A stretch of 64,000 nucleotides of DNA from a virus. Lineage: Duplodnaviria > Heunggongvirae > Uroviricota > Caudoviricetes. The notes below the pieces were generated by a model. The model saw only the letters and a list, made by a program, of their open reading frames with translations, did no database searches and had not been told where the DNA came from. The position numbers and the translations under genes are program-made. Position 1 is the stretch's first letter, and each line of letters begins with the position of its first letter. The stretch covers positions 2,322 through 66,321 of the IMG/VR virus record IMGVR_UViG_2529292920_000018. One strand, written 5' to 3'. Below, piece by piece: positions 1 through 33,542 of this stretch.

Positions 1-235
1 TCAGTTGGGTGAACCCCTTAGCTGTCAGTGTCGCGTCCGGGTGGTTACGGGAACGTACGTGTTCAGCCAGTGACTGTGCGGCTTCCTCCGTTTTTTTCTT
101 CAGCCATTTCGTCCTGTTTGCCAGTTGCCGGGGGGCTCGATTTGATATCCCGTCTGCACCACCCAGAACCGGATCTGATGTCTCCAGTTGATAGATATTT
201 TCTTCCCACTTTTCTGTTTCATTCAGGTTTCCCAT
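1..235 (-). CDS. tail fibre protein, N-terminal fragment (gene continues beyond window start)
   Basis: Manual minus-strand translation from ATG at 235..233: MGNLNETEKWEENIYQLETSDPVLGGADGISNRAPRQLANRTKWLKK...RNHPDATLTAKGFTQL, a typical tail-fibre N-terminus; lies directly downstream of the gpI-like gene. Confidence 0.5.
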   Translation of the reverse strand, partial: MGNLNETEKWEENIYQLETSDPVLGGADGISNRAPRQLANRTKWLKKKTEEAAQSLAEHVRSRNHPDATLTAKGFTQL

Positions 236-237
236 AA

Positions 238-816
238 TCAACTGCTCCCGTGGTTATAACTGCCATCATGGATGGCGGTATTGTTATAGCGAATGGCCAC
301 AGACTGATACTCCAGGCTGGCCAGATGGCAGCGGGCCGGTGCAAATGCAGCCAGCGTCTGACGCAGCATCGCGGCCTGATCGTTAGTAATGGGCTGTTTC
401 AGAATAACGCGATAAACTGCCCAGGCGGCTGCATCTCCATGAACAAACAGTCCGTTATAGCTGCGATTGCCGTCGTAACTGAGACGACCTGTGCCTTCAA
501 TCAGATCCACTTCACCAAAGCCAAAACGGCGGATAACTTCCCGGATTGACCACGGCGTCCCTTTATACCGGTGCAGTTCGATGGCTGCTTTTATAAGCAT
601 GCGGCGAACATCGTCCGATTCCGCCAGCTCCCAGCCATCGCCAGACAGTGAGAACTGCTCGCCCAGCCATGGCAGCGCGGAACTGTCGACGATATCGACG
701 AGAAAGACCATCAGTACGCTCAGGTCGATGTTATCCAGCCGTCCTGCCAGTCTTCCCAGCGTCCTGAGACTGATATCACCCTCAAGCGGTGGCGGGAGTT
801 GTAATGGCTCAGTCAT
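238..816 (-). CDS. tail protein I-like (baseplate/tail-fibre attachment)
   Basis: 192-aa ORF following baseplate J in conserved V-W-J-I order. Confidence 0.75.
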   Translation of the reverse strand: MTEPLQLPPPLEGDISLRTLGRLAGRLDNIDLSVLMVFLVDIVDSSALPWLGEQFSLSGDGWELAESDDVRRMLIKAAIELHRYKGTPWSIREVIRRFGFGEVDLIEGTGRLSYDGNRSYNGLFVHGDAAAWAVYRVILKQPITNDQAAMLRQTLAAFAPARCHLASLEYQSVAIRYNNTAIHDGSYNHGSS

Positions 817-1912
817 CAGACACTCCAGTCATGTTAAGAGTGATTGCCGTACAGTTTGCCCATTCGTTTTCTGCCACCACCCGCAGTGCCGGTGTCACCA
901 GTTCAACCTGGTACACCCCGGAAACGGACAATGCACTGATAATCTGGCTGGGGACAATATCGCGCCCCAGCGTGGCGGCACGTGATGCCACCCAGTTCTG
1001 TATGGCGCTGTTAGCGGCATCTTTTACAGACCTGGCATCCTGATCACGATAGATCGTAATCTTGGCTTCAATGGTGTAATCCACCTTCACTGGTGTTTTA
1101 GCCCGCACTGTATCAGTGAGTGGCCTGACTTTCTCATCAGAGCAGAAACTCTCTACCAGCGTGAGAACACCGCCGTCCGGCAGACCGGTACTGAGCAGCG
1201 GATACAGATCTACGGTCCCGGGAACCGGGGAAAGCACAGCAACATCGACAATGTTGGGATGGGCCTGCATGGCATGAAAGCGGTATGCGCCACGGCTTCC
1301 GGCATTGGTGAATGACTCCGGGGCCAGCCTGATACGCTCCCGGAGCCTGTCATCGTCTTCCTGTTCTGAACCGCCGGAACTGGCCGTCAGATTGCTCACC
1401 AGCAGGTCGACGTTATCAATCTCATCGAGTAACTGACTGACCTGCGCAGGTTGCCAGCCGTTACCAGCGGTACCGGGTTCGGTACAGGTGGACGTGACAT
1501 TGACCAGCAGCAATCCGGCCTTCAGTACCACATCTGTATCGGTGGCAAAAATAACGCTGTCGGAAGCGCTGACGCGGGTGCCTGCCGGGATCAGCACATC
1601 AATGGCCAGTGCCTCATCTACGGAGAACTGGAGCGTGGTAGTGGCAGGCTGCGCGGCAAGACGGTATACACCGACCAGTTCACCGAGGTAATCAATCATC
1701 GGCTCACGGGCAAAGGCGACCAGATTCTGCTTTGCTGCCTCCTGTACCGCAACCCTGACCAGCATTTCGCGATAGGCCCACAGATCAATCAGCAGACGTT
1801 CTGCCTGTGCCGGGTACAGCGTTTTGCCGGTATCCGCTTCATACTTCGCAATCATTTCTGCCGTGATTTTGTCGGCATCGCGTTCAATAAAATCGGGTTC
1901 TGTCAGCGCCAT
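809..1912 (-). CDS. baseplate assembly protein J-like
   Basis: 367-aa ORF in conserved position; overlaps neighbours as in contractile-tail modules. Confidence 0.8.
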   Translation of the reverse strand: MALTEPDFIERDADKITAEMIAKYEADTGKTLYPAQAERLLIDLWAYREMLVRVAVQEAAKQNLVAFAREPMIDYLGELVGVYRLAAQPATTTLQFSVDEALAIDVLIPAGTRVSASDSVIFATDTDVVLKAGLLLVNVTSTCTEPGTAGNGWQPAQVSQLLDEIDNVDLLVSNLTASSGGSEQEDDDRLRERIRLAPESFTNAGSRGAYRFHAMQAHPNIVDVAVLSPVPGTVDLYPLLSTGLPDGGVLTLVESFCSDEKVRPLTDTVRAKTPVKVDYTIEAKITIYRDQDARSVKDAANSAIQNWVASRAATLGRDIVPSQIISALSVSGVYQVELVTPALRVVAENEWANCTAITLNMTGVSDD

Positions 1913-2250
1913 AGCAGCTCCTGAGTCCGGGTCTGTCCGTCTGAGCCTTTCCAGCTCACCCGGAGCGTAAGATGTTCGCCGTCGACGGCGGGTTTAACTG
2001 ACATAAGCTGGCAGCGGGGCTCCCAGCGCCGGATGGCATCGACGGATTCGCGCACCACATGCGGAATGGCCCGGTCTACAGGCCAGTCGATATAAAGATG
2101 CAGATTGCTGCCGAACTCCGGGCGATGCGGGTCGCTGCCGCGGGGAGTCCGCAGGATAATTTGAATCGCCTGCCGGATATCATCCAGCCCCCGGACAATT
2201 TCGCCGGGAGCCTGCAGGGTCGGTTGCCAGAATACTGAGGTTGTTTTCAT
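1903..2250 (-). CDS. baseplate protein W-like (gp25 family)
   Basis: 115-aa ORF with size and position of GPW/gp25 baseplate wedge protein. Confidence 0.8.
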   Translation of the reverse strand: MKTTSVFWQPTLQAPGEIVRGLDDIRQAIQIILRTPRGSDPHRPEFGSNLHLYIDWPVDRAIPHVVRESVDAIRRWEPRCQLMSVKPAVDGEHLTLRVSWKGSDGQTRTQELLWR

Positions 2251-2304
2251 GGGGGCAGTATTGCCCCCGTGCGGGAACGCTGATATTAAAGGCGTTTAAA
2301 AAGC

Positions 2305-2901
2305 TCAGTGGGAGTGGTGGCTGGAGTTTTCGCCATCAGACAACATACTGCCCGTGGCATGGGCATTCCCTTTAATCTCGATATTGCCATGGATGGTCGC
2401 GGTAACACCTTCACCACCAGAACCCGCCATGCCTCCTTCGTAAATCAGCTTACCCCTGACACGCAGATCTCCGGTAAGTTCGGTTTCCGGTGCGTCAATC
2501 GTGGCTTTCTGTGTTTTCAATACCACATCAGCACCACACTCAATGACAATATGCTCAATGCCGCCCCGGATGGTCAGAGTGTGCGTCTTCCGGTTGTAGC
2601 TGTACTCTGCACCATCAGCAAACCGGGTTCCCCGGATATTTTTGTCACTGAACGGTGGTTTATCGACGTCTGAATACACCGCGCCCAGAATAACACCATC
2701 CTCGCCGTTGGCATCGAGCAGTACCTCAACCTGCTCCCCCACGTCAGGGAGCCAGTAATCTTTGTTATCCTGGGTATTGCGCTGCAGCACGTTAAGCCAG
2801 TTTGTGCGCAGGTTATCGCATTCAGGCAGACGAACGCGGGCCTGAACCCTGTCGGCATCAACGGCACTGACCGTACCGACCTGACGAGTGACACCAGTCA
2901 T
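2305..2901 (-). CDS. baseplate spike/assembly protein V-like
   Basis: 198-aa ORF between gpD-like and gpW-like genes; Gly-rich C-terminus. Confidence 0.75.
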   Translation of the reverse strand: MTGVTRQVGTVSAVDADRVQARVRLPECDNLRTNWLNVLQRNTQDNKDYWLPDVGEQVEVLLDANGEDGVILGAVYSDVDKPPFSDKNIRGTRFADGAEYSYNRKTHTLTIRGGIEHIVIECGADVVLKTQKATIDAPETELTGDLRVRGKLIYEGGMAGSGGEGVTATIHGNIEIKGNAHATGSMLSDGENSSHHSH

Positions 2902-4052
2902 TTTTTCTTCTCCTTAATCACCGTCGATGTACTGCCATCCGGGTGATAAACCGTGAGTTTCTGAGTTTTTTGTTTTTTCCCTCTTGTGACTGGCCCCCGT
3001 GCCACTTCCAGCTCTGTGGTGTAGCCGCTGTTACGGTCAAACGCATGGCGGGCAGTGGTTATGAGCCATGGCCCGGATAACTGCCCAAAACCCACCAGTT
3101 CAATTTTGTTGCCTGCTGTCAGTTGAGGTGTTCCCGTCAGCGTCAGGGAGCCGTTCTGCTGGTATTCGTTATGTCTGGCCAGTGCTGAATCCGCTTTAAT
3201 CCGGGCACTGTCCGGGTCGCTGACGCGGCTGTTAACTTTAAGTGAGTCAGCGCTGGTAACCTTACCACCTTTGAGCTTTTTGTCGCTTTCACGGGTACCA
3301 CCATCAGCTTCGTAGACGATCAGTTTTTTACTGCTGCTTTTCTGGTGTTTTACCTTTGCAGATTTATAGACCCGGTTGATGGTGTCACGCAGGGAAAAGC
3401 GGGCCACATCCTGCGGTTTTAACTGCCTGACCGGCTCCTGACTGCGCAGTGTGGCCAGATGAGAAAAAATCAGCTGGTCACTGACCACTTTCACTGCATA
3501 ACCATACTCGCTGGCCAGCCGGCGCAGAAAACCCACGTCGGTTTCAGCATACTGGGTCACCCGGTCGATTCTGATGGACTCAATGCTGCCCACCAGTTTC
3601 AGTCGGTGCTTTCTGGCAATCCGCCCCGCAACAGCTGCCAGCGTGGTGTTCTCAAAACCACGACTGGTTTTAGTCCGCAGGGCACTGTTAACCGAGGTGG
3701 CCACCCCACGGATAGAAACAACGGAAGCGGGCGAACTCACTTCGATCTCGTCTATAGAGAACGTACCGCAGGACAGCAGCTTCTCGCCCTGATAGCCCAT
3801 TTTCAGCGTCAGCGTGTCACCCTTGCCCGGATACCATTTATCCAGCCAGCGGCCATCGGTGTCGTCCAGCTCCACCTCAATGGTATCGGACTCATTTTTG
3901 ATGTTATCGCTCCAGGTCACACGGGTGACATAAGGCGCGATATCAGAGGTGATGTTTTTCTGCAGATACCACAAAGTGAACACCGGTGTCAGCACATCGC
4001 TGACGCCGGTTAACGCTGATGTGACTTGCGCAGTGCTGTTTATCTCAGCCAT
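2898..4052 (-). CDS. tail protein gpD-like (late control D family)
   Basis: 384-aa ORF; size and position match gpD / Mu P; full length, unlike the truncated P2-like copy at 33673. Confidence 0.75.
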   Translation of the reverse strand: MAEINSTAQVTSALTGVSDVLTPVFTLWYLQKNITSDIAPYVTRVTWSDNIKNESDTIEVELDDTDGRWLDKWYPGKGDTLTLKMGYQGEKLLSCGTFSIDEIEVSSPASVVSIRGVATSVNSALRTKTSRGFENTTLAAVAGRIARKHRLKLVGSIESIRIDRVTQYAETDVGFLRRLASEYGYAVKVVSDQLIFSHLATLRSQEPVRQLKPQDVARFSLRDTINRVYKSAKVKHQKSSSKKLIVYEADGGTRESDKKLKGGKVTSADSLKVNSRVSDPDSARIKADSALARHNEYQQNGSLTLTGTPQLTAGNKIELVGFGQLSGPWLITTARHAFDRNSGYTTELEVARGPVTRGKKQKTQKLTVYHPDGSTSTVIKEKKK

Positions 4053-4255
4053 GGGGCAATATCCTCTTCTGTACGGGCTTCTTCAGCCTCAATCACCGGG
4101 ATCAGTAACAACAGCCCGGAGGGCAGCACCGGCGTGATGGCCACGTGCGGATTGGCGGCAATAATCCGGGGATAGCCCAGCGGGTCACCGTAGTACTGCC
4201 ATGCCAGCGAATCCCAGCGCTCTCCGTCACGGGTAACATGTTCAAGAAACATCAC
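4040..4255 (-). CDS. tail protein X-like (LysM-like)
   Basis: 71-aa ORF with WQYYGDP motif resembling the P2 gpX family. Confidence 0.55.
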   Translation of the reverse strand: MMFLEHVTRDGERWDSLAWQYYGDPLGYPRIIAANPHVAITPVLPSGLLLLIPVIEAEEARTEEDIAPWLR

Positions 4256-5136
4256 ACACTCCTCGTCAGTATTCTGGCGGCCATTGCACTTAATCCCGGA
4301 GACATGCGGTTGAATGCTGTGCCGGCGGCGTTAAGCTGCCCGGAAACGGTATCCAGAGCACCTGCAATATTTCTTTTGTCCACACCACTCAGCGCAGACT
4401 GTGCCTGCTGTACATACGTGGCTGCTTCGCTGGCTGTTCTGGCCAGACTGATGGCATCGGGCATGGATTCAGAGAGTGCGTTAAACGCCGGAACACTTTT
4501 CCCCAGAGCCCCGGAGATATTACCCAGTCCGCTCATCAGCCCCGGCACACGGGTCAGTGCGACAACGGGGTTATCCTTCATTTTCTGTGTCACCCGAACG
4601 GCGCTGATAGTGGTCTGGAGTACAGACTGCGCCTGTTTCGCATAGTTGACGCCGTTGCGGATGAACTGCGCCACCCCTGAAGGTGAAGGTATGGCACCGG
4701 AGACCGCCCCGACACCCGGGAGCTTCGTGCGTATTGCCGGTGGTTGCAGAGGATTTTTCGGGTCACCGGTGTATTCCCGGAGAGACACGGTGGCACTGAC
4801 AGCCAGCACGTTGCCGGTACTGTCAGTCTGCTCGCTGGTTGCAGTCACATCGGTAATCACGAACCAGCCGCGATAGTCACCGTTGCCGAAGACCAGCGCC
4901 AGTGCCTGATGGGCTTTCATGGCTGTTCGCAGTCTCGCCAGCTCCACATCGGGTACACAATAATGCTGATGGAAAACCAGAGTTATCTGGATTTCGTCCA
5001 GCCTGTCGCCGACGAACTGCAGGCCAGGCTTACCCCCGATGCGGGCATGCTCCGCATAATCGACGCCGAACGTGGCCTCGAAGCCGTCCCAGTAGGTAAT
5101 CAGCTCAAACTCAATATCACCCAGTACGGCAAACAT
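4252..5136 (-). CDS. tail protein (gpU / Mu N DNA-circulation-like)
   Basis: 294-aa ORF immediately downstream of tape measure, in the position of Mu N / P2 U. Confidence 0.5.
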   Translation of the reverse strand: MFAVLGDIEFELITYWDGFEATFGVDYAEHARIGGKPGLQFVGDRLDEIQITLVFHQHYCVPDVELARLRTAMKAHQALALVFGNGDYRGWFVITDVTATSEQTDSTGNVLAVSATVSLREYTGDPKNPLQPPAIRTKLPGVGAVSGAIPSPSGVAQFIRNGVNYAKQAQSVLQTTISAVRVTQKMKDNPVVALTRVPGLMSGLGNISGALGKSVPAFNALSESMPDAISLARTASEAATYVQQAQSALSGVDKRNIAGALDTVSGQLNAAGTAFNRMSPGLSAMAARILTRSV

Positions 5137-8087
5137 CAGCGGTACTCCTTACGTTGTTTCTGAGCCAGCAGACGCTCCAGCATTTTTTCCAGCTCATGCA
5201 GACTCATATTCAGGGCACCAGTCAGTCCTGCAGGCGCTGTGGTTTCCCTGCCATTGAGGAAAAACTGAGGATTAAAGCTGACCTGGATACCACCAGACGT
5301 TCCACCGCCGGTTGCAGCTGCACCACGGCCTGAATATCCGGCAGCCAGGATTTCAGGCGAGGGGATACGGGGAACATCCGGTGTCATCTCATTTGCCAGA
5401 CGTTGCCCTGGTAAAATCGATGCCCGGGTGGAGAGCGGAATAGCGGGCATGGAAGACAAACTATTGATTACGGCTCCGATCGCATTTTTAGCAGACGACA
5501 TAAACCCATTGATATCGGGCAACGGCATACTGAAGCGAACACCTGAAGTGTTATCCCGTATTTCTGGCCCCTGGATGCTCACGGGCATTCTGGGGAGCAG
5601 TTCACTGGCCATTCGCTGCCCGGCCAGAGCTGCAAGCGGAGTGGTCCGCTGCAGGCCAATGGCGGCCCCCTGCGCGATATTGTCACCAAAGCCCATAAAC
5701 ACGCGGCTCGGCGAATGAATGCCCAGCTTTTCGCTGAACCAGCCACTGATGCTGTCACCCATTCCGGTTACACTGGATTTGAGCGACTCCCATTTGTTTT
5801 TGATACCGTTAATCAGACCATCGACAAGATGGCCACCGAAGTCGGTAAACTTTGCCGGCAGATCAACACCAAGATATTTCAGCGCAGCTGCAAAGGCTTT
5901 ATAGAGCAGACCTGCCGGCGACCAGTTAATCAGCAGCTTACCAGTTCCCGCGATACCGCCGTTAAAGGCTTCCTGAATGTCAGCCCAGCACTGTTTAAAC
6001 CAGCTACTGATGCTGTCACCCATTCCGGTTACACTGGATTTGAGCGACCCCCATTTGTTTTTGATACCGTTAATCAGACCGTCGATAAGATGGCCACCGA
6101 AGTCGGTGAACTTTGCCGGCAGAGCAACGCCGAAATATTTCAGCGCAGCCGCAAAGGCTTTATAGAGCAGGCCTGCCGGCGACCAGTTAATCAGTAACTT
6201 ACCAATTCCCACAATGCCGCCGTTAAAGGCTTCCTGAATGTCTGCCCAGCGCTGTTTAAACCAGCCACTGACTGCCCCCCAGTTGCGGTAGATAAGGTAA
6301 GCTGCTGCCGCGACAGCGGTGATAACGAGACCGATGGGATTCATCATCAGCGCACGTCCAATCCAGAGAACAGCACGTCCGGCGAGCATAATTCCGCGAA
6401 CCAGCCCCCCGGAGAGCACGCCACTCAGTGTTCTGGCTCCTCTGGCGACGGCGCTAAATCCGGTCACCAGCCAGCGGAGCTTACCGCCTTGCCCCAGTGC
6501 GAGCGACAGACGAAGCCAGTTGGCCCGAAGTAAAACAGCATTTTTCCAGACACTTACAAAGGGGGAAATAAGGAGATTCAGCCCCAGTTTGAGACCAACA
6601 GTCGCTATCTTAATCGCAAGGAGCGCACTGATGAGCTTAAAAGCCCCACTGACAAATTGCGGGTGAGTCGCTACCCAGTGTTTTGCCCCCTGAATGAGTG
6701 GAAGCAGTTCCTGAGTCAAAGAAATAAAAGATGGAGCTAATTGATCGCCCAGCGTAATTGCCAGATCGCGACTGCTGACCATAAGTGTTTTAGTGGCTTC
6801 AAGGGGAGATTTCAGCCGCTGATCATAAGCACTGGCAAGCAAATCGTTATCCGCAGCCCTGAGAGCACCGGCACGGATCTCTCGATATCTGTCCATGTTG
6901 GCCAGCATCGGGCGGATAAATGCCATGACCTGCATATCCGCGAACATATCGCCCAGACCAAAGTTTTTCGCCAGAGCCTGAAGTGCCTCATCTCTTGCCG
7001 TATCATTCTTTATTTTCATGGCTGATTTGAAGCCGGCCAGCGCTTCGGGGCTTTTGGCATTGAGGTAACGTTCTATAACACTCAACATCCCTTCAATCGG
7101 AGAGATCCCCGCAGCTTTATAACTCGCAATAGATCCCTGCAAATCAATACCCAGATCAGCAAACTGTTTCTGAGTATCGCGGGCAAAAATTTTGGTAAGA
7201 AAGTTTTTAAAATTATTGGCTGCTTCGTCGGTGGAACCTGCACCGATTTTTGCTATCTGGAGACTGGCCCCTATTTCAGCAACAGCCTCTTTTCCACTGG
7301 CAATACCCGCCATCATTGGGGCCAGGGACTGCATCCACTTGACCTGATCCGGGATTTCAAATGACCCCTGGTCACCGGCATAAGCCATAATATTCTGAAC
7401 GGCACCAAAATCTCTGGCCGCACCTTTCAGGGAGTTTTGCCAGACTGCGGCCACTTTTGCCCAGTCCTGAGCAGACGTGCGTGTTGCCGTTGCCGCGCGG
7501 GCAATATCCGGCATCAGAAAACCGATATCTGACACATTATCAATATTGTCGCTGATGAGTGAACCCACCGCCTCCTGCAGCTCATCCTGATACTGATTGT
7601 ATTTAAGCGCCCAGCCTTTTATCTGTCCGGCAAGTGCATCCCGCGTTTTATTGTCATATTTTGCGGTGATCGACATATCAATCATTTTGTCCTGAAAAGA
7701 CATGGACTGCTGAACGGCAGGGGAAACCGTATGATAAACAGTCTGTGCCATGCCATACGCTTCAATCCCCTGACCATACAGCGCCATGCGGTTAGCTTTC
7801 AGCGCATCACTGGTAGCGGATGCCGCTGACAGACGGCGCTGCTGGCGCTCAATTTGCTCCATGGTGCGGCTTACCCGCAGCAGCTCGCTGTTGAGATGCT
7901 GCATCCGGGAAGAACCCAGTTGACCATAACGTTCTGTTGCACGGGTTAAAGCGTTCTGACGTTCCTGCAGGCGGCGTGAGGTATCGCTCAGGGAATCAAG
8001 CGCACGGCGGGTACCGCTCATTGCAGAACGGAATGTGCTACCAATCATCCCGCCGATAACAACGCCGACTGAAAACTGTCCCGACAT
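5136..8087 (-). CDS. tail tape measure protein
   Basis: 983-aa ORF, Ala/Gly-rich with predicted coiled coil; contains an internal 86-aa tandem duplication. Confidence 0.85.
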   Translation of the reverse strand: MSGQFSVGVVIGGMIGSTFRSAMSGTRRALDSLSDTSRRLQERQNALTRATERYGQLGSSRMQHLNSELLRVSRTMEQIERQQRRLSAASATSDALKANRMALYGQGIEAYGMAQTVYHTVSPAVQQSMSFQDKMIDMSITAKYDNKTRDALAGQIKGWALKYNQYQDELQEAVGSLISDNIDNVSDIGFLMPDIARAATATRTSAQDWAKVAAVWQNSLKGAARDFGAVQNIMAYAGDQGSFEIPDQVKWMQSLAPMMAGIASGKEAVAEIGASLQIAKIGAGSTDEAANNFKNFLTKIFARDTQKQFADLGIDLQGSIASYKAAGISPIEGMLSVIERYLNAKSPEALAGFKSAMKIKNDTARDEALQALAKNFGLGDMFADMQVMAFIRPMLANMDRYREIRAGALRAADNDLLASAYDQRLKSPLEATKTLMVSSRDLAITLGDQLAPSFISLTQELLPLIQGAKHWVATHPQFVSGAFKLISALLAIKIATVGLKLGLNLLISPFVSVWKNAVLLRANWLRLSLALGQGGKLRWLVTGFSAVARGARTLSGVLSGGLVRGIMLAGRAVLWIGRALMMNPIGLVITAVAAAAYLIYRNWGAVSGWFKQRWADIQEAFNGGIVGIGKLLINWSPAGLLYKAFAAALKYFGVALPAKFTDFGGHLIDGLINGIKNKWGSLKSSVTGMGDSISSWFKQCWADIQEAFNGGIAGTGKLLINWSPAGLLYKAFAAALKYLGVDLPAKFTDFGGHLVDGLINGIKNKWESLKSSVTGMGDSISGWFSEKLGIHSPSRVFMGFGDNIAQGAAIGLQRTTPLAALAGQRMASELLPRMPVSIQGPEIRDNTSGVRFSMPLPDINGFMSSAKNAIGAVINSLSSMPAIPLSTRASILPGQRLANEMTPDVPRIPSPEILAAGYSGRGAAATGGGTSGGIQVSFNPQFFLNGRETTAPAGLTGALNMSLHELEKMLERLLAQKQRKEYR

Positions 8088-8580: not shown

Positions 8581-8677
8581 GATTGTGCTCCTGTGTAAGT
8601 TCAGGGCAGTATGTCGGGAGAAGCGCGTGACGGATATTAAAGGAGATTAAGAAGAAGGGGCCGGAGCCCCTGTGATG

Positions 8678-8959: not shown

Positions 8960-8961
8960 CG

Positions 8962-24374: not shown

Positions 24375-24381
24375 AACAAAA

Positions 24382-24847: not shown

Positions 24848-24870
24848 AAAAGTGAATCTCTATCTTGATA

Positions 24871-24888: not shown

Positions 24889-24940
24889 ATAATCTAACAC
24901 ATATAAGGCAAACATCATTGCATCAACAAAGGAGACAACG

Positions 24941-25129: not shown

Positions 25130-25175
25130 ATATTTTGAGTCTTTGTAAAAGGTTATCACATATCGCAAAAGAGGT

Positions 25176-25490
25176 ATGCAGATGAGTAAGACGAATGTTT
25201 CAAGCTCCGGCAGTCGCATCCTCCGGGTACTCAAAGCGCTGCGCGGTCATGCCCTGAACGGTATTTCTAACGGTGAACTGGCGACAGCACTGCACGAGTC
25301 ACCGGCAAACATCAACCGGGCACTCAACACCCTCATTGAAGAAGGGCTGGCTCTGAAACTGGAGAACGGACGTTTTGCACCGGGCATCCAGTTACTGCAG
25401 ATCGCCATGGCCCACAGTAACGAGATGGCACGTGCACAGGATCGTATTAACGAAATTAACCAACGTGTCATTTCAGGTAGTCGTTTGTAA
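25176..25490 (+). CDS. hypothetical protein, possible winged-helix DNA-binding
   Basis: 104-aa ORF in early operon. Confidence 0.4.
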   Translation: MQMSKTNVSSSGSRILRVLKALRGHALNGISNGELATALHESPANINRALNTLIEEGLALKLENGRFAPGIQLLQIAMAHSNEMARAQDRINEINQRVISGSRL

Positions 25491-25500
25491 GGAGTAATCA

Positions 25501-26421: not shown

Positions 26422-26738
26422 TGAATACGAATAACACACAAAATACCCTGATGGACAGCCCGGAGGCACTGGGGCACGCACTGTGTAATCTGCTGCCGGA
26501 GATGGTGCAGGGTTTCCGCGTGGTGACCCCTTCCGGTGAAATCTGCGTACCCGCACAGGAGACGCACCCGTTTGTACTGACGATGGAGGTGATGCTGATG
26601 CAGCAGATAAGACGTCTGCAGAATCAGTCAGCATTACGCCCGGTAGTTGCACCGCAACCGGTAAATACCGTGGTGAAAACCTGCGATGGCGAAACACTGT
26701 GCGACCTCGCCAGAAAAATTGCCGCCAGAATCGGATAA
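26421..26738 (+). CDS. hypothetical protein
   Basis: 105-aa ORF overlapping the upstream stop (ATGA). Confidence 0.4.
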   Translation: MNTNNTQNTLMDSPEALGHALCNLLPEMVQGFRVVTPSGEICVPAQETHPFVLTMEVMLMQQIRRLQNQSALRPVVAPQPVNTVVKTCDGETLCDLARKIAARIG

Positions 26739-26753
26739 CAGGGAAGACAAGCT

Positions 26754-28523
26754 ATGACCCCGGCACTGACTGAAAAACTGGTTGAAACAGCCCGCGCGGC
26801 ACGTGACGCGGGGCATGGTAAACGCGGTGCAATATACGACGCTGCCTGTGCTGAACTTGGCATGTCCCGCGCCACTCTGCTGCGCAGGCTGAAGGAGGTA
26901 TCTGTGACTGATAAACGCAAAAAACGCGCCGATGCCGGGCGCAGCGCCCTGACCCGCGACGAAGCCGCGCTGATATCTGCCACACTGCGTGAGGCCACCC
27001 GCAAGAACGGTAAGCGTCTCTATTCCATCGCAGATGCAGTGGAAACCCTGCGGGCTAACGGCTTTATCACCGCAGGCAGAACAGATGAAACCACCGGTGA
27101 GTTTTTCCCGTTGTCTGAAGATGCCATCAGCCGTGCTCTGCGTAACTATGGCCTGCACCCGGAACAACTGGATGCCCCTGCACCACATACCGAAGTGGCC
27201 AGTCTGCATCCCAATCATGTCTGGCAGATTGACGCCTCACTCTGCACGCTTTACTACCTGAGCAATGGACATAAAGGGCTGCAGGTGATGGACAGCGCGA
27301 AGTTCTACAAGAACAAGCCCGCTAACCTTGCCCGTATCGCCAGTGACCGCGTGTGGAGTTACGAGATTACCGACCATGCCAGCGGCTGGATTTACGTTGA
27401 GTATGTGACGGGCGCGGAATCAGGTGAGAACCTGTGTTCTGTGCTTATCAACGCCATGCAGGAGCGTGGCGGCGCAGACGTGCTGCACGGCGTGCCGAAA
27501 ATACTCTATCTCGACCCCGGCTCGGCAAACACCGCGGGTATGACGAAAAACATGTGCCGCTCACTGGGCATCGACCTGATAGCGCACAAGCCGCATAACG
27601 CCCGCGCCACCGGACAGGTGGAAAAGGCGCGTGACATTATCGAACGCAAGCTGGAGCCGGGTCTGAAGTTCCGGCCGGTTCACAGTCTGGAAGAACTCAA
27701 CGCGCTGGCCGCGAAATGGCGCAGCCACTTTAACGCCACGGCTGTTCACAGCCGCCACGGTAAAACCCGCACGGATATCTGGCTGAAGATTACTGCTGAG
27801 CAGCTGAAAAAAGCGCCTTCCGTTAAGGTATGTCGTGAACTGGCTGTGGCGGCACCAGAACTCCGCAAAGTCACGCCAAAACTTCGTGTCTCGTTCCGGG
27901 GCACTGAATTTGACGTATCAACGGTACCGGGCGTACTGGTTGGTGAAAAACTGATGATTACCCGTAACCCATGGCGCAGCGATGTGGCACAGGTGGTTCT
28001 GACTGGTGAGGACGGCCACGAGACGTTCTTCCTGGTCGAAGAGGTCAGAAAGAACGAGTTTGGCTTTGCTGAAGGCGCGGCGGTATTTGGCGAAAGTTAC
28101 AAAGCCCTGCCGGAAACCCCGGCACAGATGGCGGCAAAAGAAACCGAAGCGCTGGTTACCGGTACAGACAACGCCGCAGATGCAGCCGCCGCACGCAAGG
28201 CGAAGGCGCTGCCGTTCGGCGGGCGGCTTGACCCGTATAAACATATCGACGACACCACACTTCCGGCCTATATGCCGAAGCGTGGTCAGGCCTCTGACGT
28301 ACGCGGGCCGCGCACTGAACAACGTCCCATGACTCATGTGGAGGCCGCGAAAGCCCTGCGCGATAAGTTCAGCACCGACGGCCTTACCTGGACGCCGGAA
28401 CATTACCGCCAGTTAACGGCACAGTACCCGGACGGCGTACCGGAAGCCGCACTGGATGAAGTCATGGCCACGCTGACCACACCGGCCCGCAGCAGTGTTA
28501 TCAGCATTGTTAACGGCAACTGA
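26754..28523 (+). CDS. DDE transposase (Mu A-like, integrase-core fold)
   Basis: 589-aa ORF with HVWQIDASL and YLDPGSANT catalytic-core-like motifs; followed by an AAA+ target-selection ATPase. Confidence 0.8.
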   Translation: MTPALTEKLVETARAARDAGHGKRGAIYDAACAELGMSRATLLRRLKEVSVTDKRKKRADAGRSALTRDEAALISATLREATRKNGKRLYSIADAVETLRANGFITAGRTDETTGEFFPLSEDAISRALRNYGLHPEQLDAPAPHTEVASLHPNHVWQIDASLCTLYYLSNGHKGLQVMDSAKFYKNKPANLARIASDRVWSYEITDHASGWIYVEYVTGAESGENLCSVLINAMQERGGADVLHGVPKILYLDPGSANTAGMTKNMCRSLGIDLIAHKPHNARATGQVEKARDIIERKLEPGLKFRPVHSLEELNALAAKWRSHFNATAVHSRHGKTRTDIWLKITAEQLKKAPSVKVCRELAVAAPELRKVTPKLRVSFRGTEFDVSTVPGVLVGEKLMITRNPWRSDVAQVVLTGEDGHETFFLVEEVRKNEFGFAEGAAVFGESYKALPETPAQMAAKETEALVTGTDNAADAAAARKAKALPFGGRLDPYKHIDDTTLPAYMPKRGQASDVRGPRTEQRPMTHVEAAKALRDKFSTDGLTWTPEHYRQLTAQYPDGVPEAALDEVMATLTTPARSSVISIVNGN

Positions 28524-28533
28524 GGAGGGAAAC

Positions 28534-29700
28534 ATGCTGGTACTGAAGCAGCAACTGAAAGAGGCCCGTATTCCACAGGCGGTGGTGGCGAGAGCTGTCG
28601 ATGTTTCTGAGGCCACGCTGGCCCAGATTGTGAATCATAACGCGTGGCCCCGCACCAGCCCCGGAGAAGTGCGCCGGCGTCTTGCGTCCTGGCTGGAAAG
28701 TCAGGGGATTGATACAACGAAGAGTTTTGATGCTGTACAGGGCGCGGCCACGCCCCGTACAGCGGGTACCACAGATAAAACGAGCCTCAGTGAGGAAGAG
28801 AATATGTTACTCAAAAAACAGGTGTTATTTCCAGCAACCAAAAAAGCGTTTGGTCTTTTCCGTGACCCGTTCGCCGACGAAGCCATGCAGGGTTCTGATG
28901 ATGTGTTCACCACCCCGGATATTCGCTACGTGCGTGAGGCGTTGTACCAGACAGCCCGTCATGGTGGGTTTATGGCCGTCATCGGTGAGTCCGGTGCGGG
29001 TAAATCCACGCTGCGCCGCGACCTGACTGAACGTATCAACCGCGAGAATGCGCCGGTAATTGTTATCGAGCCATACATCATCGCTATGGAAGACAACGAT
29101 GTGAAAGGGAAAACCCTGAAGGCAGCAGCGATTGCCGAAGCCATTATCAGTACCATCGCACCACTGGAAAGCATCAGACGCAGTCAGGACGCCCGCTTTC
29201 GCCAGTTGCATCGCGTCCTGAAAGACAGCAGCCAGGCGGGGTTCAGCCACGTTCTGGTGATTGAGGAGGCCCACAGTCTGCCCATTCCGACACTGAAACA
29301 CCTCAAACGCTTTTTTGAGCTGGAGTCCGGTTTCAAAAAACTGCTGTCCATCGTGCTGATTGGCCAGCCGGAACTGGCGACAAAACTGTCTGAACGCAAT
29401 ATGGAAGTCCGTGAAGTCGTTCAGCGCTGTGAGGTGGTCGAACTTCTGCCTCTGGACAATAACCTTGAAGAGTTTCTGACGTTCAAACTGCAACGGGCCG
29501 GTAAACAACTGACGGACATTATGGACGCCAGCGCAGTGGATGCCATACGTGCCCGCCTGAGCAATCCGGGAAGTCATCGTAAAAATATGGTCAGCCTGCT
29601 GTATCCGCTGGCCGTCAGTAACCTGGTAATAGCCGCCATGAATCTGGCCGCTGAAATCGGGGTTCCACAGGTCAACGCTGACGTTGTCAAAGGGGTTTAA
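28534..29700 (+). CDS. transposition ATPase (Mu B / TniB-like AAA+)
   Basis: Walker A GESGAGKST, Walker B VLVIEEAH; start at ATG 28534 with GGAGG upstream. Confidence 0.8.
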   Translation: MLVLKQQLKEARIPQAVVARAVDVSEATLAQIVNHNAWPRTSPGEVRRRLASWLESQGIDTTKSFDAVQGAATPRTAGTTDKTSLSEEENMLLKKQVLFPATKKAFGLFRDPFADEAMQGSDDVFTTPDIRYVREALYQTARHGGFMAVIGESGAGKSTLRRDLTERINRENAPVIVIEPYIIAMEDNDVKGKTLKAAAIAEAIISTIAPLESIRRSQDARFRQLHRVLKDSSQAGFSHVLVIEEAHSLPIPTLKHLKRFFELESGFKKLLSIVLIGQPELATKLSERNMEVREVVQRCEVVELLPLDNNLEEFLTFKLQRAGKQLTDIMDASAVDAIRARLSNPGSHRKNMVSLLYPLAVSNLVIAAMNLAAEIGVPQVNADVVKGV

Positions 29701-29702
29701 TA

Positions 29703-29972
29703 ATGAAATCCACCACAGGTATCAACCAGCAAATCAGCAAAGTGCAGTCAGCCATTATGGCGCTTAAGGCGACGAACACGGATGTACAAAGCATCACCAT
29801 CAGGGGTAACAAACCTGTCATCCGCGTTTCCCGGAGTGCGCATTGCATGCGCATGCTTGAGCAGGGAAAGGCCTGTTATCTGTATACCGGTCATGACCAC
29901 AGGGGACATTTCCGTCAGGGCGTTTTCGAACTGCACGGCTGTCGCGTCGTGTGGCCGGAATCTTTGTGGTAA
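29703..29972 (+). CDS. hypothetical early protein
   Basis: 89-aa ORF immediately after the B-like gene. Confidence 0.45.
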   Translation: MKSTTGINQQISKVQSAIMALKATNTDVQSITIRGNKPVIRVSRSAHCMRMLEQGKACYLYTGHDHRGHFRQGVFELHGCRVVWPESLW

Positions 29973-29999
29973 TCAGCACAACAGGAGGAGTCATAAAAT

Positions 30000-30530
30000 A
30001 TGGCAAAAAGTACAAAAGGGGCAAAACGTATCAAAGCCGCAGCAGCACTCTGGGTGCCGGGGACACGCGAAGAGGTCATTGAGGGAATCAGACTGCTTGG
30101 TGACGCGCAACGTGAACTGGTCAGGGCTGAAACAGAAATGAATGACACCATTGGCGACATCACTGCACGTTATGCCCCGCTCACCGAGAGCCTGAAAAAA
30201 CGCATGGCCGAACTGCAGTCCGGTATCCAGACATGGTGTGAGGCGCACCGTGATGAACTGACCGGCAACGGGAAGGTGAAGTTCGCTAACCTCACCACCG
30301 GCGAGGTGCAGTGGCGAAACCGTCCGCCGTCAGTCAGCATTCGCGGGGCGGATAATGTCATTGAACTGCTGAGACGTCTGGGGCTTGAGCGCTTTATTCG
30401 TGTAAAGGAGGAAATAAATAAAGATGCCATTCTGAATGAAAAAGAGGCTGTGAAAAATATTCCCGGTATTACCATAAAAAGTGATATTGAGGATTTTTCA
30501 ATAATTCCTTTTGAGCAGGATGTGCAGTAA
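30000..30530 (+). CDS. gam: host-nuclease inhibitor Gam-like protein
   Basis: 176-aa ORF with Mu Gam family features. Confidence 0.7.
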   Translation: MAKSTKGAKRIKAAAALWVPGTREEVIEGIRLLGDAQRELVRAETEMNDTIGDITARYAPLTESLKKRMAELQSGIQTWCEAHRDELTGNGKVKFANLTTGEVQWRNRPPSVSIRGADNVIELLRRLGLERFIRVKEEINKDAILNEKEAVKNIPGITIKSDIEDFSIIPFEQDVQ

Positions 30531-30627
30531 ACACACCACGTTAATTATTTAATAAAAACATTTTCTTTTTTATTCCGGCGTCAGCGCCGCGGGCTTCTGC
30601 ACGCCGGAAACAGAGGAGAATTAAATT

Positions 30628-30822
30628 ATGATATTTAAATGTATTCAGTGCGAGAGGGATATAACAGCCCTGCGTTTTCACAGCGCCATCGCCGTGATGT
30701 CCGGTAAGTATCACATACCTGCAGTACGTGTCACCCTGGTCTGCCCGTACTGCAGCCAGCATTTTTCGGCGGACGTGCCCGTCATGGAATTCTCCCGCCC
30801 TGACAGGGAGGACGCGCAATGA
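30628..30822 (+). CDS. small Cys-rich zinc-ribbon protein
   Basis: CxxC ... CPYC motifs in 64 aa. Confidence 0.4.
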   Translation: MIFKCIQCERDITALRFHSAIAVMSGKYHIPAVRVTLVCPYCSQHFSADVPVMEFSRPDREDAQ

Positions 30823-31091
30823 TTACCCCACAGGAAGCACGACAGCGCACCCGAACTCTTGTTGAACACTATGTCAACGAGTGTGAATGCCGCGACCTCA
30901 CCGATGTGAAGCACGTCCTGACGGCGCTAATCAGCATGGTCACACAGGCCATTGTGGCGACCAACGGAAAGGAGGCTGCCCTGCAGGTACTGATGAACAC
31001 ACTCACCCACACGGCAGAGCATGAGGTGCCGTACCGGATGGAAACCACTGCAGAAGGCGGCCTGCACATCACCGTCAGCCGGAAGCACTGA
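30819..31091 (+). CDS. hypothetical protein
   Basis: 90-aa ORF overlapping the upstream stop by 4 nt. Confidence 0.4.
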   Translation: MITPQEARQRTRTLVEHYVNECECRDLTDVKHVLTALISMVTQAIVATNGKEAALQVLMNTLTHTAEHEVPYRMETTAEGGLHITVSRKH

Positions 31092-31100
31092 GGGCGCGGC

Positions 31101-31397
31101 ATGACACGAAACACCGAACTCACCCGCACCGCCCTCTACCGTCTGGCCCTGCAGCGTTTCGGGCCGGACGCACAGGCCCTGAAACTGGCAGAAGAGGCCG
31201 CTGAACTGGCGGCCAGTGCCGCCCGCAACCTGAACGGACAGGGCAGCGAAAGTGACCTCGCGGCAGAGCTGGCAGACGTGGAAATCATGACAGAGCAACT
31301 GCGCCTTCAGGGGATGGACCGGCTGATTGACTTCCACAAACAGAAAAAACTGGAACGTCTGGCTGCACGACTGGGCGTGATTTACACGAACGAGTAA
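31101..31397 (+). CDS. MazG-like nucleotide pyrophosphohydrolase domain protein
   Basis: EEAAEL ... AELADVEIM all-alpha NTP-PPase-like motif pattern. Confidence 0.45.
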   Translation: MTRNTELTRTALYRLALQRFGPDAQALKLAEEAAELAASAARNLNGQGSESDLAAELADVEIMTEQLRLQGMDRLIDFHKQKKLERLAARLGVIYTNE

Positions 31398-31411
31398 CCG
31401 GGAGGCATTCA

Positions 31412-31627
31412 ATGGCTGACATACTCAGGGAAATCACCGCATGGACACTGATTCTTACTGGCCTGGCGACATGCCTCAGTGCGGGGGCAGCCCTGGCTGC
31501 CCTGCTGATGCACATAACAACACAGTGGTTATGGGAAAAGCTTAAAGCAGCATACAGCCTGAAAGAGCTGTCCGACGCTGTCCGGGCATGGAAACGGCAG
31601 AAAAATACCGGAGATACAGAACAATGA
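31412..31627 (+). CDS. small membrane protein
   Basis: 71-aa ORF with one TM helix. Confidence 0.35.
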   Translation: MADILREITAWTLILTGLATCLSAGAALAALLMHITTQWLWEKLKAAYSLKELSDAVRAWKRQKNTGDTEQ

Positions 31628-32307
31628 CAGACCAGAATAAACACATTGAGAAACTGAAAAAGTTGCTGGCGCTGGCCGCATCCGGCAACCCGCACGAGGC
31701 CGCTCTGGCACTGCGCCGAGCCCGTAAACTGATGGATGTTCACGGCATCACACATTCCGACATTGCTATGAGTGATATTGATGAAACCATCAGTCACTAC
31801 TGGCCGACAGGCAGTCTCCGTCCACCGCGCTACATGCTGGGCCTGATGAACATCATCCGCGAGGTATTTGGTGTTAACTCCATCATTCACCCCGGCACGC
31901 ATCCGTCTGTGGGGTTCTACGGCAACCGGGAACGTGCGGCACTGGCTGCATACACCTGGGAAGTGCTGGCCCGTCAGCTGAAAAAGGCGCGTCAGCAGTA
32001 TATCAGTGCACAGAACAAAAGAATAAAAACCGCCACCCGCACCAGCCGTGGAGACCAGTTTGCCGAAGGCTGGGTGCTGGCCGTTATCAGTGAAATACAG
32101 TCCTTTGCCCTGACCGATGATGAGCGTGAACTGATGCAGCAGTGGCTGGAACATAAATACCCGCAGACGCAAACCACCAGGGCGCGTAAACCGGGAAGAA
32201 GCCGCAATGGCGACGCCTCGCGCTATGCGGGGTTTCGTGAAGGGCAGAACGTCAGACTGCACCGCCCGGTCAGTGGGCAGGAACAACAGAAACTGGAGGC
32301 CAGATGA
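31624..32307 (+). CDS. DUF2786-like protein
   Basis: N-terminal IEKLKKLLALAASGNPHEAALALRRARKLM motif; start set at ATG 31624. Confidence 0.5.
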   Translation: MTDQNKHIEKLKKLLALAASGNPHEAALALRRARKLMDVHGITHSDIAMSDIDETISHYWPTGSLRPPRYMLGLMNIIREVFGVNSIIHPGTHPSVGFYGNRERAALAAYTWEVLARQLKKARQQYISAQNKRIKTATRTSRGDQFAEGWVLAVISEIQSFALTDDERELMQQWLEHKYPQTQTTRARKPGRSRNGDASRYAGFREGQNVRLHRPVSGQEQQKLEAR

Positions 32308-32523
32308 TTACGCTATCAGGTAAAAGCCGGAAATTAAAAGCCTGCCGAATATCTGCCAGATACCTTTTTGCCCGCGCCTTTTTTAAGAACGTCAGGCCGG
32401 GGATCACAATTGGTGTTATTGCCGGACGCGAACAGGTTGAAAAATACATGTCAGGTGCATGGTGGAATAACGACCCTGTCATTGCTGCCCGTAATATTCA
32501 TATCGAATGGGGAGGTATTCAGA

Positions 32524-32730
32524 ATGACTACTGAAACCATTGTCTGTTTTCTTTTCTGGTATATGTACGCAGGATCATGCAGCGCAAGACTTCATCGTTC
32601 CCTGGGCTATGGCAGGCACTACGACACCGCGCATTACATCCTGTACATGACCGCCGTCATGTTGTTCTGGCCAGTCACCCTGCCAGCTGCAACCGACATT
32701 GTTGCCGACAGACTGAAAAAAAGGAGATGA
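32524..32730 (+). CDS. small membrane protein
   Basis: 69-aa ORF with two hydrophobic helices, start ATG 32524. Confidence 0.3.
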   Translation: MTTETIVCFLFWYMYAGSCSARLHRSLGYGRHYDTAHYILYMTAVMLFWPVTLPAATDIVADRLKKRR

Positions 32731-32731
32731 T

Positions 32732-33181
32732 ATGCAGAAAAAACGCCTGATACAGCTTATCCATATTGCCCGTAATGAACTGGGTATGGATGAAGACACC
32801 TACCGCCAGATGTTACAGGGGCTGACCGGTAAAGCCTCAACCAAAGGAATGGATACCACACAACTAAACTGCGTGCTGGAATCCATGAAAAAGAAAGGCT
32901 TTCGCGTTAAACCAGCCAGAAAAGCCAGCTCCGGTTTACCGCTGGATAACCATCCGCAGTCCAGGAAAATTCGTGCGCTATGGCTTGAAATGGCTGCTGC
33001 CGGCATTGTTCGTGACCGTTCAGAAAATGCATTAGCGAGGTGGATCAAGCGGGAAACGGGCATCAGCGCCCTGCGCTGGCTCAGTACTGAACAGGCAAGC
33101 AGTGTTATTGAGAAACTGAAGAAGTGGCAGCGCAGAGCTGCGGGAGTCAAACATGAGCGACCTGAATCAGTTTCGAAGTAA
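32732..33181 (+). CDS. gemA: GemA-like regulatory protein (Mu gp16 family)
   Basis: 149-aa ORF immediately upstream of mor as in Mu. Confidence 0.7.
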   Translation: MQKKRLIQLIHIARNELGMDEDTYRQMLQGLTGKASTKGMDTTQLNCVLESMKKKGFRVKPARKASSGLPLDNHPQSRKIRALWLEMAAAGIVRDRSENALARWIKRETGISALRWLSTEQASSVIEKLKKWQRRAAGVKHERPESVSK

Positions 33182-33542
33182 GGGGCCGGAACTCCTGGTG
33201 GAACTGGCACAGCATACCTCTGAGACCGTTCGCGAGATTATTGATATTGAGCCCGAAGTTGCCGACCAGATTGGTCAGGCCGTCGCGAACCGAATGATGC
33301 AGGTCTGGGGCGGGCAAAACGTTTATTTCCCGATGGGCATGGTATGGAAGGTCAGTCAGCGCGACCGGGAAATCTTCAGGGAGTTTAACGGACGCAACCA
33401 CCACGAACTGGCCCGCAAATTTGGTGTTTCGCTTCAGTGGGTCTACAGCGTGGTTAAGCGGGTAAGAAAAGAAGAACTGGATCGGATGCAGGGCAAGCTA
33501 TTTGCTGATGAACCCGATGCAGATACGGAGAAAAAAGAGTAA
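33153..33542 (+). CDS. mor: Mor-family middle-operon transcription activator
   Basis: QVWGGQNVYFP ... ELARKFGVSLQWVYSVV Mor/C-family C-terminal HTH. Confidence 0.75.
   Translation: MSDLNQFRSKGPELLVELAQHTSETVREIIDIEPEVADQIGQAVANRMMQVWGGQNVYFPMGMVWKVSQRDREIFREFNGRNHHELARKFGVSLQWVYSVVKRVRKEELDRMQGKLFADEPDADTEKKE

Follow-up and report, generated by a model that had tools for sequence, protein, structure and literature searches.

A BcepMu-family transposable prophage of Escherichia coli with divergent early and late operons, inserted in a P2-like prophage

The element is a copy of a phage type common in E. coli

The window analysed here is a stretch of 64,000 nucleotides from a Caudoviricetes virus record (IMG/VR record IMGVR_UViG_2529292920_000018, positions 2,322 to 66,321), numbered from its first letter. 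Its positions 1-33704 are almost certainly most of one copy of a temperate transposable myovirus of the BcepMu family (Bcepmuvirus), whose host is Escherichia coli. As determined by tblastn, 36 of the 50 open reading frames (ORFs) examined in the window matched Burkholderia phage BcepMu (NC_005882) in strict reverse-collinear order, with identities of 31-76%, compared with 9 that matched phage Mu (gp47, G, F, portal, TerL, Gam, GemA, Mor and one weak match). Mu A, B, c, Ner, Lys and Mom gave no tblastn match at E<0.1, and for MuA and MuB this held for the full E. coli element as well as for the window. An earlier note on this DNA, made from the sequence alone, had read it as a Mu-like prophage in the style of BcepMu rather than of Mu itself, and the whole-genome comparison bore that reading out.

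The closest equivalents of the element were Escherichia phage PhiKM (GenBank PQ738613) and the prophages of E. coli EcPF7, MLI121, FCI23, E94 and FDAARGOS_1267, which displayed 99.2-99.7% nucleotide identity to window 1-33704, with identical gene order, ends and cargo genes. PhiKM, which is classed by NCBI under Bcepmuvirus and whose record states isolation on uropathogenic E. coli, matched window 1-25000 at 99.2% nucleotide identity with the full length covered. That record is a partial, permuted assembly without the invertible tail-fibre region, and a literature search for a publication on PhiKM gave phiKMV-type matches only. The Klebsiella phage KP12 clone was 85.9% identical to the window and alike in layout, with a match unbroken from 111 to 24321. 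Prophages in hundreds of complete E. coli genomes were >99% identical to window 1-33704, and the tnpA-exeA segment was found in 640 of 5426 such genomes (~12%, about one in nine), at 709 places and in at most three copies per genome.

The element is thus an ordinary copy of an already known phage type, in a form that is very common in E. coli. Relative to its equivalents, the window copy was distinguished by a 261-nt tandem duplication in the tape-measure gene and by a new insertion site, in gene D of a P2-like prophage. Its value as a discovery is small: publications on the inverted early arm of the BcepMu family, and on its occurrence in enterobacteria, go back to 2004, and the exact phage has already been deposited. 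The new details are four candidate late promoters conserved in BcepMu, and the insertion into the P2-like gene D.

Early and late genes form divergent blocks

All main ORFs between 238 and 21966 (lysis, terminase, head, tail and baseplate) lie on the minus strand and make up the late block, and the ORFs of the early block, 24941-33542, form an unbroken run on the plus strand. The stretch between the two blocks (22097-24847) has genes on mixed strands. The ORF map and the Pfam calls therefore agree with the rightward early and leftward late operons that the earlier note had described. Its contrast with a co-directional Mu was likewise upheld by the Mu gene map (NC_000929), in which early and late genes all occupy one strand. 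The mor gene ends 162 bp from the end of the element, a layout identical to that of BcepMu. The repressor gene lies ~8.9 kb from the nearest end, unlike the canonical placement in Mu, beside the left end.

BcepMu has been described with two gene clusters on opposite strands, a Tn552/IS1604-type transposase, terminal CA dinucleotides and a P2-like tail, and replicative transposition and variable host sequence at both ends of the virion DNA have been reported for it (PMC2771037). Its split between bottom and top strands has been documented together with an inversion common to its gammaproteobacterial relatives (PMC2771037, PMC3091646), and SalMu, PhotoMu and ChromoMu have been named as BcepMu-related prophages (PMC3417384).

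The element has in common with BcepMu the divergent blocks, Mor at an end, an rve transposase, an ExeA-like ATPase and a gp16-family regulator; a lysis cassette of holin, SLT endolysin and embedded Rz/Rz1, a Mu-type head, a P2-type tail and a late-promoter box; and TG...CA ends with paired [GC][AC]GATAWWT repeats 23 bp apart. Differences were found in the middle of the early operon, where the element has a Mu-type Gam and a DUF2786/DUF7168 protein whereas BcepMu has SSB, HU, DUF3164 and MazG-like genes, and in the cargo, which consists of orphan genes and Dam in the element and of gp18-20 in BcepMu. The terminal acyltransferase of BcepMu is absent from the element. Full-length copies in E. coli also have a Gin-like invertase and a tail-fibre segment that can invert, whereas BcepMu has been reported without an inversion system (PMC2771037).

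With Mu, the element shares the character of a temperate transposable myovirus, Gam, GemA, Mor, Mu-type F, portal and TerL, and terminal TG...CA. Both also appear to have four late units. Co-directional genes, MuA/MuB, the Mor-then-C relay, the Mu tail genes, Mom/Com and a 5-bp target duplication are Mu's own and are not found in the element. The Pseudomonas transposable siphoviruses with a matching transposase (JD18, JBD25, Fc02, H71/H72 and relatives) resemble it in transposase lineage, with ~57% full-length identity. Their records name another phage group.

Extent, ends and unity of the element

The right end of the element was placed at 33704, 162 bp past the mor stop codon, where the sequence reads ...TCTAATCA. 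Matches to the E. coli prophages stop at this position and P2-like sequence starts at 33705, so that the junction reads ...TCTCAAGTCTAATCA/TATAGG.

33662-33704, minus strand: right (mor-side) transposon end, terminating ...CA-3′ at 33704
33685-33693 and 33662-33670: subterminal repeats of the right end, GAGATAAAT and GAGATATTT respectively, 23 bp apart

The E. coli element and BcepMu each had, at either end, TGAW followed by [GC][AC]GATAWWT at nt 12-20 and nt 35-43. The element has 5′-TG...CA-3′ termini, the left one seen in related copies only. Across the genome, the end-repeat motif SMGATAWWT was not enriched (3 found, 5.4 expected), and its weight comes only from its position at the ends and its agreement with BcepMu.

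Position 1 is a mere window edge. The window opens 235 nt into a tail-fibre gene and holds ~33.7 kb of an element of ~37.1 kb, with ~3.4 kb beyond the left edge. In full copies (EcPF7 and MLI121, ~37.1 kb), the extra ~3.4 kb consists of the remainder of the tail-fibre gene, the invertible segment, the Gin-like invertase and the left end, which terminates at 5′-TGATGCGCCGCGCGATAAATG reading inward (...CATTTATCGCGCGGCGCATCA on the minus strand). The left part of the present copy would accordingly be expected to be a tail-fibre/invertase segment ending in TGATGCGCC..., beside TATAGG and the rest of the P2 gene D. The span of 1-33542 that had been proposed misses both real ends, the right one being at 33704 and the left one beyond the window. 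For annotation, the Mu-like element should be bounded at 33704 and not at the mor stop codon, and its family duplicates 6-bp targets.

Window 1-33704 was collinear (~99.5%) with the EcPF7 and MLI121 prophages, in two high-scoring segment pairs split solely at the tape-measure duplication. Insertion sites of the related prophages were the otsB-araH gap (EcPF7, FCI23), cbtA (MLI121), an SDR oxidoreductase gene (E94) and a position beside yibQ (FDAARGOS_1267). Direct repeats of 6 bp were found at four unrelated sites, each with a different sequence (CCATTT, GTGAAC, TCGACT and ATTATT). Because one collinear match recurs at four unrelated sites with 6-bp duplications at its outer ends only, the early and late blocks are one element and a single mobile unit. 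The target duplication of BcepMu was not addressed in the literature found, which did not cover the original BcepMu paper.

A drop in GC content at 23000-25000 (0.46-0.49, against 0.55-0.60 on the flanks), together with genes at 22097-24374 that have no BcepMu homologues, could be taken to mean that two different elements abut somewhere between 22000 and 24900. No boundary was found there. The collinear match described above runs through this interval at all four sites, PhiKM matches the whole, the KP12 match is unbroken across most of it, and BcepMu has both blocks in one virion genome of 36.7 kb. The GC dip is the variable cargo and the immunity module, and the two-element reading was rejected as having practically no chance of being correct. 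A canonical Mu-family (Muvirus) prophage whose left arm was inverted by rearrangement or assembly error was also rejected, on gene content, and is next to impossible. Although Gam, GemA, Mor, F, portal and TerL have Mu homologues and the invertase of the full copies is 76.7% identical to Mu Gin, there were no homologues at E<0.1 of MuA, MuB, c, Ner, Lys or Mom, or of C apart from the mor gene itself, and the transposase is of the BcepMu gp09 type. The tail, moreover, is of P2 type, and the orientation of the blocks is identical in BcepMu, KP12, PhiKM and independent E. coli copies. The duplications of 6 bp likewise differ from those of Mu, which are 5 bp long.

It is quite unlikely that the window copy is a defective or immobilised remnant. 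All 50 ORFs examined were open and full-length relative to their BcepMu and E. coli orthologues, the right end and its repeats are intact, and the 99.2%-identical PhiKM was deposited as a phage isolated on uropathogenic E. coli. The 261-nt duplication in the tape-measure gene is unusual but in frame. Suspicion of a remnant would otherwise draw on the ~3.4 kb of the left end that is out of sight, and on pseudogenes in some E. coli copies. In EcPF7 and MLI121, for instance, the tail assembly gene is interrupted by an internal stop and a small ORF is frameshifted, and the invertase of E94 is degenerate. Several observations do weigh against the account of a BcepMu-family copy and its control that is preferred here. 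The left end and the second copy of the target duplication of this insertion lie beyond the window, and this junction was found in none of the 5426 complete E. coli genomes. An intrinsic terminator was looked for after mor and none was found. The count of the late-promoter motif is partly circular, since the four sites that it recovers were also the source of the pattern, and the promoters and the operator described below are ones that we infer from sequence.

Early operon and immunity control

The genes and control elements of the early block and of the adjoining immunity region were as follows.

24941-25129, plus strand: DNA-binding protein of the BcepMu gp16 family (NCBIfam TIGR04111 BcepMu_gp16, 97 bits against a cutoff of 34)
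25176-25490, plus strand: IclR-type helix-turn-helix (HTH) protein (Pfam)
25501-26421, plus strand: DUF3102 protein (Pfam)
26421-26738, plus strand: 105-aa protein, function unknown
26754-28523, plus strand: DDE transposase of the BcepMu gp09 lineage (Pfam rve, above cutoff)
28534-29700, plus strand: ExeA-like AAA ATPase (Pfam AAA_22; RefSeq 'ExeA family protein'; 58.9% identical to BcepMu gp08)
From 29703, plus strand: 89-aa protein, function unknown, opening the region 29703-32730
30000-30530, plus strand: Mu-type Gam (Pfam Phage_Mu_Gam)
31101-31397, plus strand: small ORF with similarity to NTP-pyrophosphohydrolases
31588-32307, plus strand: DUF2786/DUF7168 protein
32732-33181, plus strand: GemA (Pfam GemA; 44% identical to BcepMu gp02)
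33153-33542, plus strand: Mor (Pfam Mor; 54% identical to BcepMu gp01)
24491-24847, minus strand: cI/Cro-type HTH repressor, 118 aa (Pfam HTH_3 and Phage_CI_repr; 23% identical to BcepMu gp17)
24381-24405, minus strand: terminator-like hairpin 3′ of the repressor gene, with an 11-bp stem and a T run
24865-24893, plus strand: candidate early promoter, sigma-70-like, TTGATA-N17-AATAAT

Proteins encoded at 24941-26738 were 33-46% identical to BcepMu gp16, gp12 and gp10, and the transposase was 67.8% identical to BcepMu gp09 over 98% of its length. The transposase showed no similarity to MuA at E<0.1, and a search against PDB sequences gave no meaningful matches. The gene for the ExeA-like ATPase lies directly 3′ of the transposase gene, and its product is presumed to be the functional counterpart of MuB. 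The earlier note had called this gene 'B', but the protein is an ExeA-like AAA ATPase without similarity to MuB.

The region 29703-32730 is the semi-essential early region, and several of its small ORFs fall in PHROG families without assigned function. Its Gam was 61.5% identical to Mu Gam, and BcepMu had no Gam match. The occurrence of a Mu-like Gam in a BcepMu-type element may be a sign of module exchange between transposable-phage lineages in enterobacteria.

A perfect 16-bp palindrome, GCTCATAATTATGAGC (24872-24887), lies inside the spacer of the candidate early promoter, and an extra half-site at 24842-24849 overlaps the start codon of the repressor gene. The palindrome is plausibly the operator of the HTH_3/cI-type repressor, judged by its sequence and position. 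By binding GCTCATAATTATGAGC in the promoter spacer, the repressor would block transcription of the rightward early operon. Once induced, the operon would be transcribed outward to the right end and would yield the gp16-like regulator, the transposase and the ATPase (both for replicative transposition), Gam for protection of DNA ends, GemA and, last, Mor. Queries with Mu Mor and with Mu C both matched one gene only (33153-33542), the sole Mor/C-family activator; no second Mor/C paralogue was found by tblastn. An Rfam scan of the whole window gave no RNA families at the gathering score.

Candidate late promoters

There are exactly four non-coding spacers in the late block, and all of them contain the pattern WTTAAWATC-N19-NAWRCT-G.

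21991-22025, minus strand: candidate late promoter 1, lysis unit, TTTAAAATC-N19-GATGCT-G
14524-14558, minus strand: candidate late promoter 2, head unit, ATTAAAATC-N19-CAAACT-G, in the 214-bp gap 5′ of the protease gene
8607-8641, minus strand: candidate late promoter 3, tail unit, TTTAATATC-N19-CATACT-G
2256-2290, minus strand: candidate late promoter 4, baseplate unit, TTTAATATC-N19-AATACT-G

The WTTAAWATC box alone occurred 8 times in the window, compared with 1.3 expected. The composite motif occurred 4 times in 64 kb, with 0 expected, and all occurrences were on the late strand in the four spacers. A relaxed pattern, WTTAAWA-N22-ANNNTG, had only 3 matches in BcepMu, 5′ of gp21 (holin), gp32 (protease) and gp49 (W), and 4 matches in KP12, all at orthologous spacers. 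Across the window, BcepMu and KP12, the 19-nt spacer has kept its length while its sequence has diverged. This conservation in BcepMu and KP12 is the only independent support for the promoter pattern.

In Mu, Mor activates C, which in turn activates four late promoters. As there is a single Mor/C-family gene in the element, direct activation by Mor would be the simplest model. Mor, the last early product, would act in trans and directly on the four leftward late promoters, from which the lysis/packaging, head, tail and baseplate/fibre units would be transcribed. The cascade of the element would then have two tiers, in place of the Mor-then-C relay of Mu. The geometry of the late promoters may offer a cheap handle on how one Mor-type activator runs a whole late programme.

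Lysis cassette

The lysis genes open the late block.

21616-21966, minus strand: holin, 116 aa (Pfam Holin_2-3, E=1e-41; 52% identical to BcepMu gp21)
20873-21613, minus strand: SLT lytic transglycosylase endolysin (Pfam SLT; 55% identical to BcepMu gp22)
20239-20889, minus strand: Rz-type i-spanin, 216 aa, with an N-terminal transmembrane segment (32% identical to BcepMu gp23)
20277-20543, minus strand: Rz1-type o-spanin, 88 aa, in the +1 frame wholly within Rz, with lipobox LLAVSC

The embedded Rz/Rz1 spanins that had been proposed were confirmed, with Rz1 lying entirely inside the Rz gene. The transmembrane segment of Rz is GILLAILINAFLVGLYAMGY, followed by a periplasmic part that is rich in charged and polar residues as judged by eye, and the RefSeq orthologue is named 'lysis system spanin subunit'. 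The signal of Rz1 is MKKVRAIPLSACLLAVS↓C and its mature part is Pro-rich; identity to BcepMu gp24 was 39% over 56 aa. BcepMu has been placed among the embedded spanin groups (PMC6139136).

The endolysin keeps the ES, GLAQ and YNGG motifs in its SLT domain and has a single hydrophobic segment (aa 35-58, mean Kyte-Doolittle value ~2.0) behind four Arg. The earlier note had labelled it a signal-anchor-release (SAR) enzyme, and this label was not confirmed. A true SAR endolysin, tethered by its N-terminus and released on holin depolarisation, is rather less likely than not. The one N-terminal hydrophobic segment behind four Arg and the position of the gene directly after a small holin gene would suit it, and endolysins of Gram-negative phages with N-terminal transmembrane segments are commonly of the SAR type. 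The composition of the segment is, however, atypical of a SAR domain. It is Phe/Trp-rich and has 29% Gly/Ala/Ser/Thr, compared with 55-62% for the SAR domains of P21 R and P1 Lyz. An AXA-type signal-peptidase motif, ACA↓AQ, follows the segment, and the N-terminus of BcepMu gp22, MRVLIAFVVALLGAAAPVAA↓Q, resembles an ordinary cleavable signal peptide. In the literature found, which did not cover the original BcepMu paper, there was no documentation of SAR behaviour for an endolysin of the BcepMu family. SAR behaviour is thus somewhat disfavoured by composition, and export of the endolysin by Sec is likely. Lysis would then be brought about by the holin, a Sec-exported SLT transglycosylase and the embedded Rz/Rz1 pair.

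Head, tail and baseplate genes

The remaining late genes are all on the minus strand and are listed here from the packaging genes to the tail fibre.

19916-20242, minus strand: gp25-like membrane protein (52% identical to BcepMu gp25)
19605-19916, minus strand: gp26-like small gene (57% identical to BcepMu gp26)
19060-19605, minus strand: small terminase of the Mu gp27 type (Pfam Phage_Mu_Gp27)
17468-19063, minus strand: large terminase TerL (62.6% identical to BcepMu)
15972-17468, minus strand: Mu-type portal (Pfam Portal_Mu; 58.9% identical to BcepMu)
15170-16018, minus strand: Mu F-like protein (Pfam Phage_Mu_F)
14709-15167, minus strand: Mu G-like protein (Pfam Phage_tail_S)
13379-14494, minus strand: head protease/scaffold, equivalent of Mu I/Z (50% identical to BcepMu gp32)
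12411-13364, minus strand: major capsid protein (44% identical to BcepMu gp34; weak match to Pfam Phage_cap_E)
12063-12401, minus strand: DUF2190/cement protein (Pfam Phage_cement_2)
11615-12061, minus strand: Mu gp36-like adaptor (Pfam Phage_Mu_Gp36)
11151-11615, minus strand: Gp37 (Pfam Gp37)
10900-11154, minus strand: 84-aa gene
9483-10910, minus strand: tail sheath (Pfam Phage_sheath_1; 75.9% identical to BcepMu)
8962-9483, minus strand: tail tube FII (Pfam Phage_tube)
8678-8959, minus strand: 93-aa protein, function unknown
8245-8580, overlapping 8163-8420, minus strand: tail assembly chaperone pair of the gpE / E+E′ type (Pfam Phage_TAC_7)
5136-8087, minus strand: tape measure protein, 983 aa (Pfam PhageMin_Tail)
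4252-5136, minus strand: gpU-like protein (Pfam Phage_P2_GpU)
4040-4255, minus strand: gpX-like protein (Pfam Phage_tail_X)
2898-4052, minus strand: gpD-like hub (Pfam Phage_GPD)
2305-2901, minus strand: gpV-like spike (Pfam Phage_base_V)
1903-2250, minus strand: gpW/gp25-like baseplate protein (Pfam GPW_gp25)
809-1912, minus strand: gpJ-like baseplate protein (Pfam Baseplate_J)
238-816, minus strand: P2 gpI-like baseplate protein (Pfam Tail_P2_I)
1-235, minus strand: tail-fibre gene, 5′ part (78 codons), full orthologues of which adjoin gpI in the E. coli copies

Genes at 14709-19605 were 44-67% identical to BcepMu gp31-27, with F, portal and TerL also matching Mu at 27-49%, and those at 8678-12401 were 49-76% identical to BcepMu gp40-35. 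Identities were 46-56% to BcepMu gp48-45 for the gpV/gpD/gpX/gpU-like proteins, and 55-63% to BcepMu gp51, gp50 and gp49 for the gpI/gpJ/gpW-like proteins. Orthologues of the chaperone pair are annotated in RefSeq as GpE family and tail assembly protein. Judged from these similarities, heads are of Mu type (portal, F, TerL, gp27) and tails are of P2 type.

The tape-measure gene contains an in-frame 261-nt tandem duplication at 5737-6271 (Tandem Repeats Finder: period 261, 2.0 copies, 92% matches). The tape measure of EcPF7 and MLI121 has a single copy and 896 aa, and the PhiKM record has a sequencing gap at the duplication site. If tail length tracks tape-measure length, a longer tail would follow from the 983-aa protein.

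Alternative tail-fibre and fibre-assembly genes, in both orientations, accompany the Gin-like invertase in the full E. coli copies. This invertible fibre/invertase region lies outside the window; in full E. coli copies it was located at 6933-10843 of L007, at 7056-10966 of L008, and in L013. The region is a host-range switch like the Mu G segment, set into a genome otherwise built like BcepMu. Strain E94 has a degenerate invertase and a different fibre gene.

Cargo locus between lysis and immunity

Four genes lie between the lysis cassette and the repressor.

22097-22825, plus strand: 242-aa protein with a Walker A motif
22801-23205, minus strand: 134-aa protein
23204-23419, plus strand: 71-aa protein
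23610-24374, plus strand: orphan D12-class DNA adenine methyltransferase (Pfam MethyltransfD12; PADLOC MTase_II)

The cargo proteins at 22097-23419 belong to PHROGs without assigned function. When the cargo ORFs were searched against PADLOC, Pfam and PDB sequences, the methyltransferase alone was recognised, and PADLOC matches were otherwise marginal (E about 0.002). The 242-aa protein had 19 homologues, in E. coli only and none with a Pfam domain, and its AlphaFold model, made from a shallow alignment, was unusable (mean pLDDT 44). BcepMu and KP12 carry unrelated orphan genes at this position, and the content differed in each family member examined. We consider it unlikely that two readings hold jointly, namely that the orphans at 22097-23419 are an undescribed exclusion/defence module and that the WTTAAWATC-N19-NAWRCT promoters are a one-step Mor regulon replacing Mor-then-C.

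The start codons of the 134-aa and 71-aa ORFs overlap back to back (CATG, 23203-23206), and there is therefore no room for a promoter between this divergent pair. The 134-aa ORF is convergent with the 242-aa gene, and the two share 25 nt at the 3′ end of the latter.

Insertion into a P2-like prophage

The element interrupts gene D of a P2-like prophage, which is 1164 nt long, after its first 673 nt.

33705-34377, minus strand: first 224 codons of gene D, truncated by the insertion; target hexamer TATAGG

An intact relative has TGTAGG at the target position. Gene D is an essential tail gene, and because it is split after codon 224, tail formation by the P2-like phage has presumably been lost. 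The P2-like prophage fills 33705 to ~63300 and comprises gene D, tail, lysis, capsid, terminase and portal genes, replication gene A, cox, a repressor and an integrase; the integrase lies near 62.3-63.3 kb, with host DNA near yegS beyond. The window should thus be annotated as two nested prophages, the P2-like one without an intact tail gene D.

At 55050-56715, between the P2-like portal and the replication region, lie two AT-rich genes (GC 0.36-0.41) whose products have 260 and 257 aa, and neither had a Pfam or PADLOC match. The position between portal and replication genes often holds accessory or defence cargo in P2-like phages.

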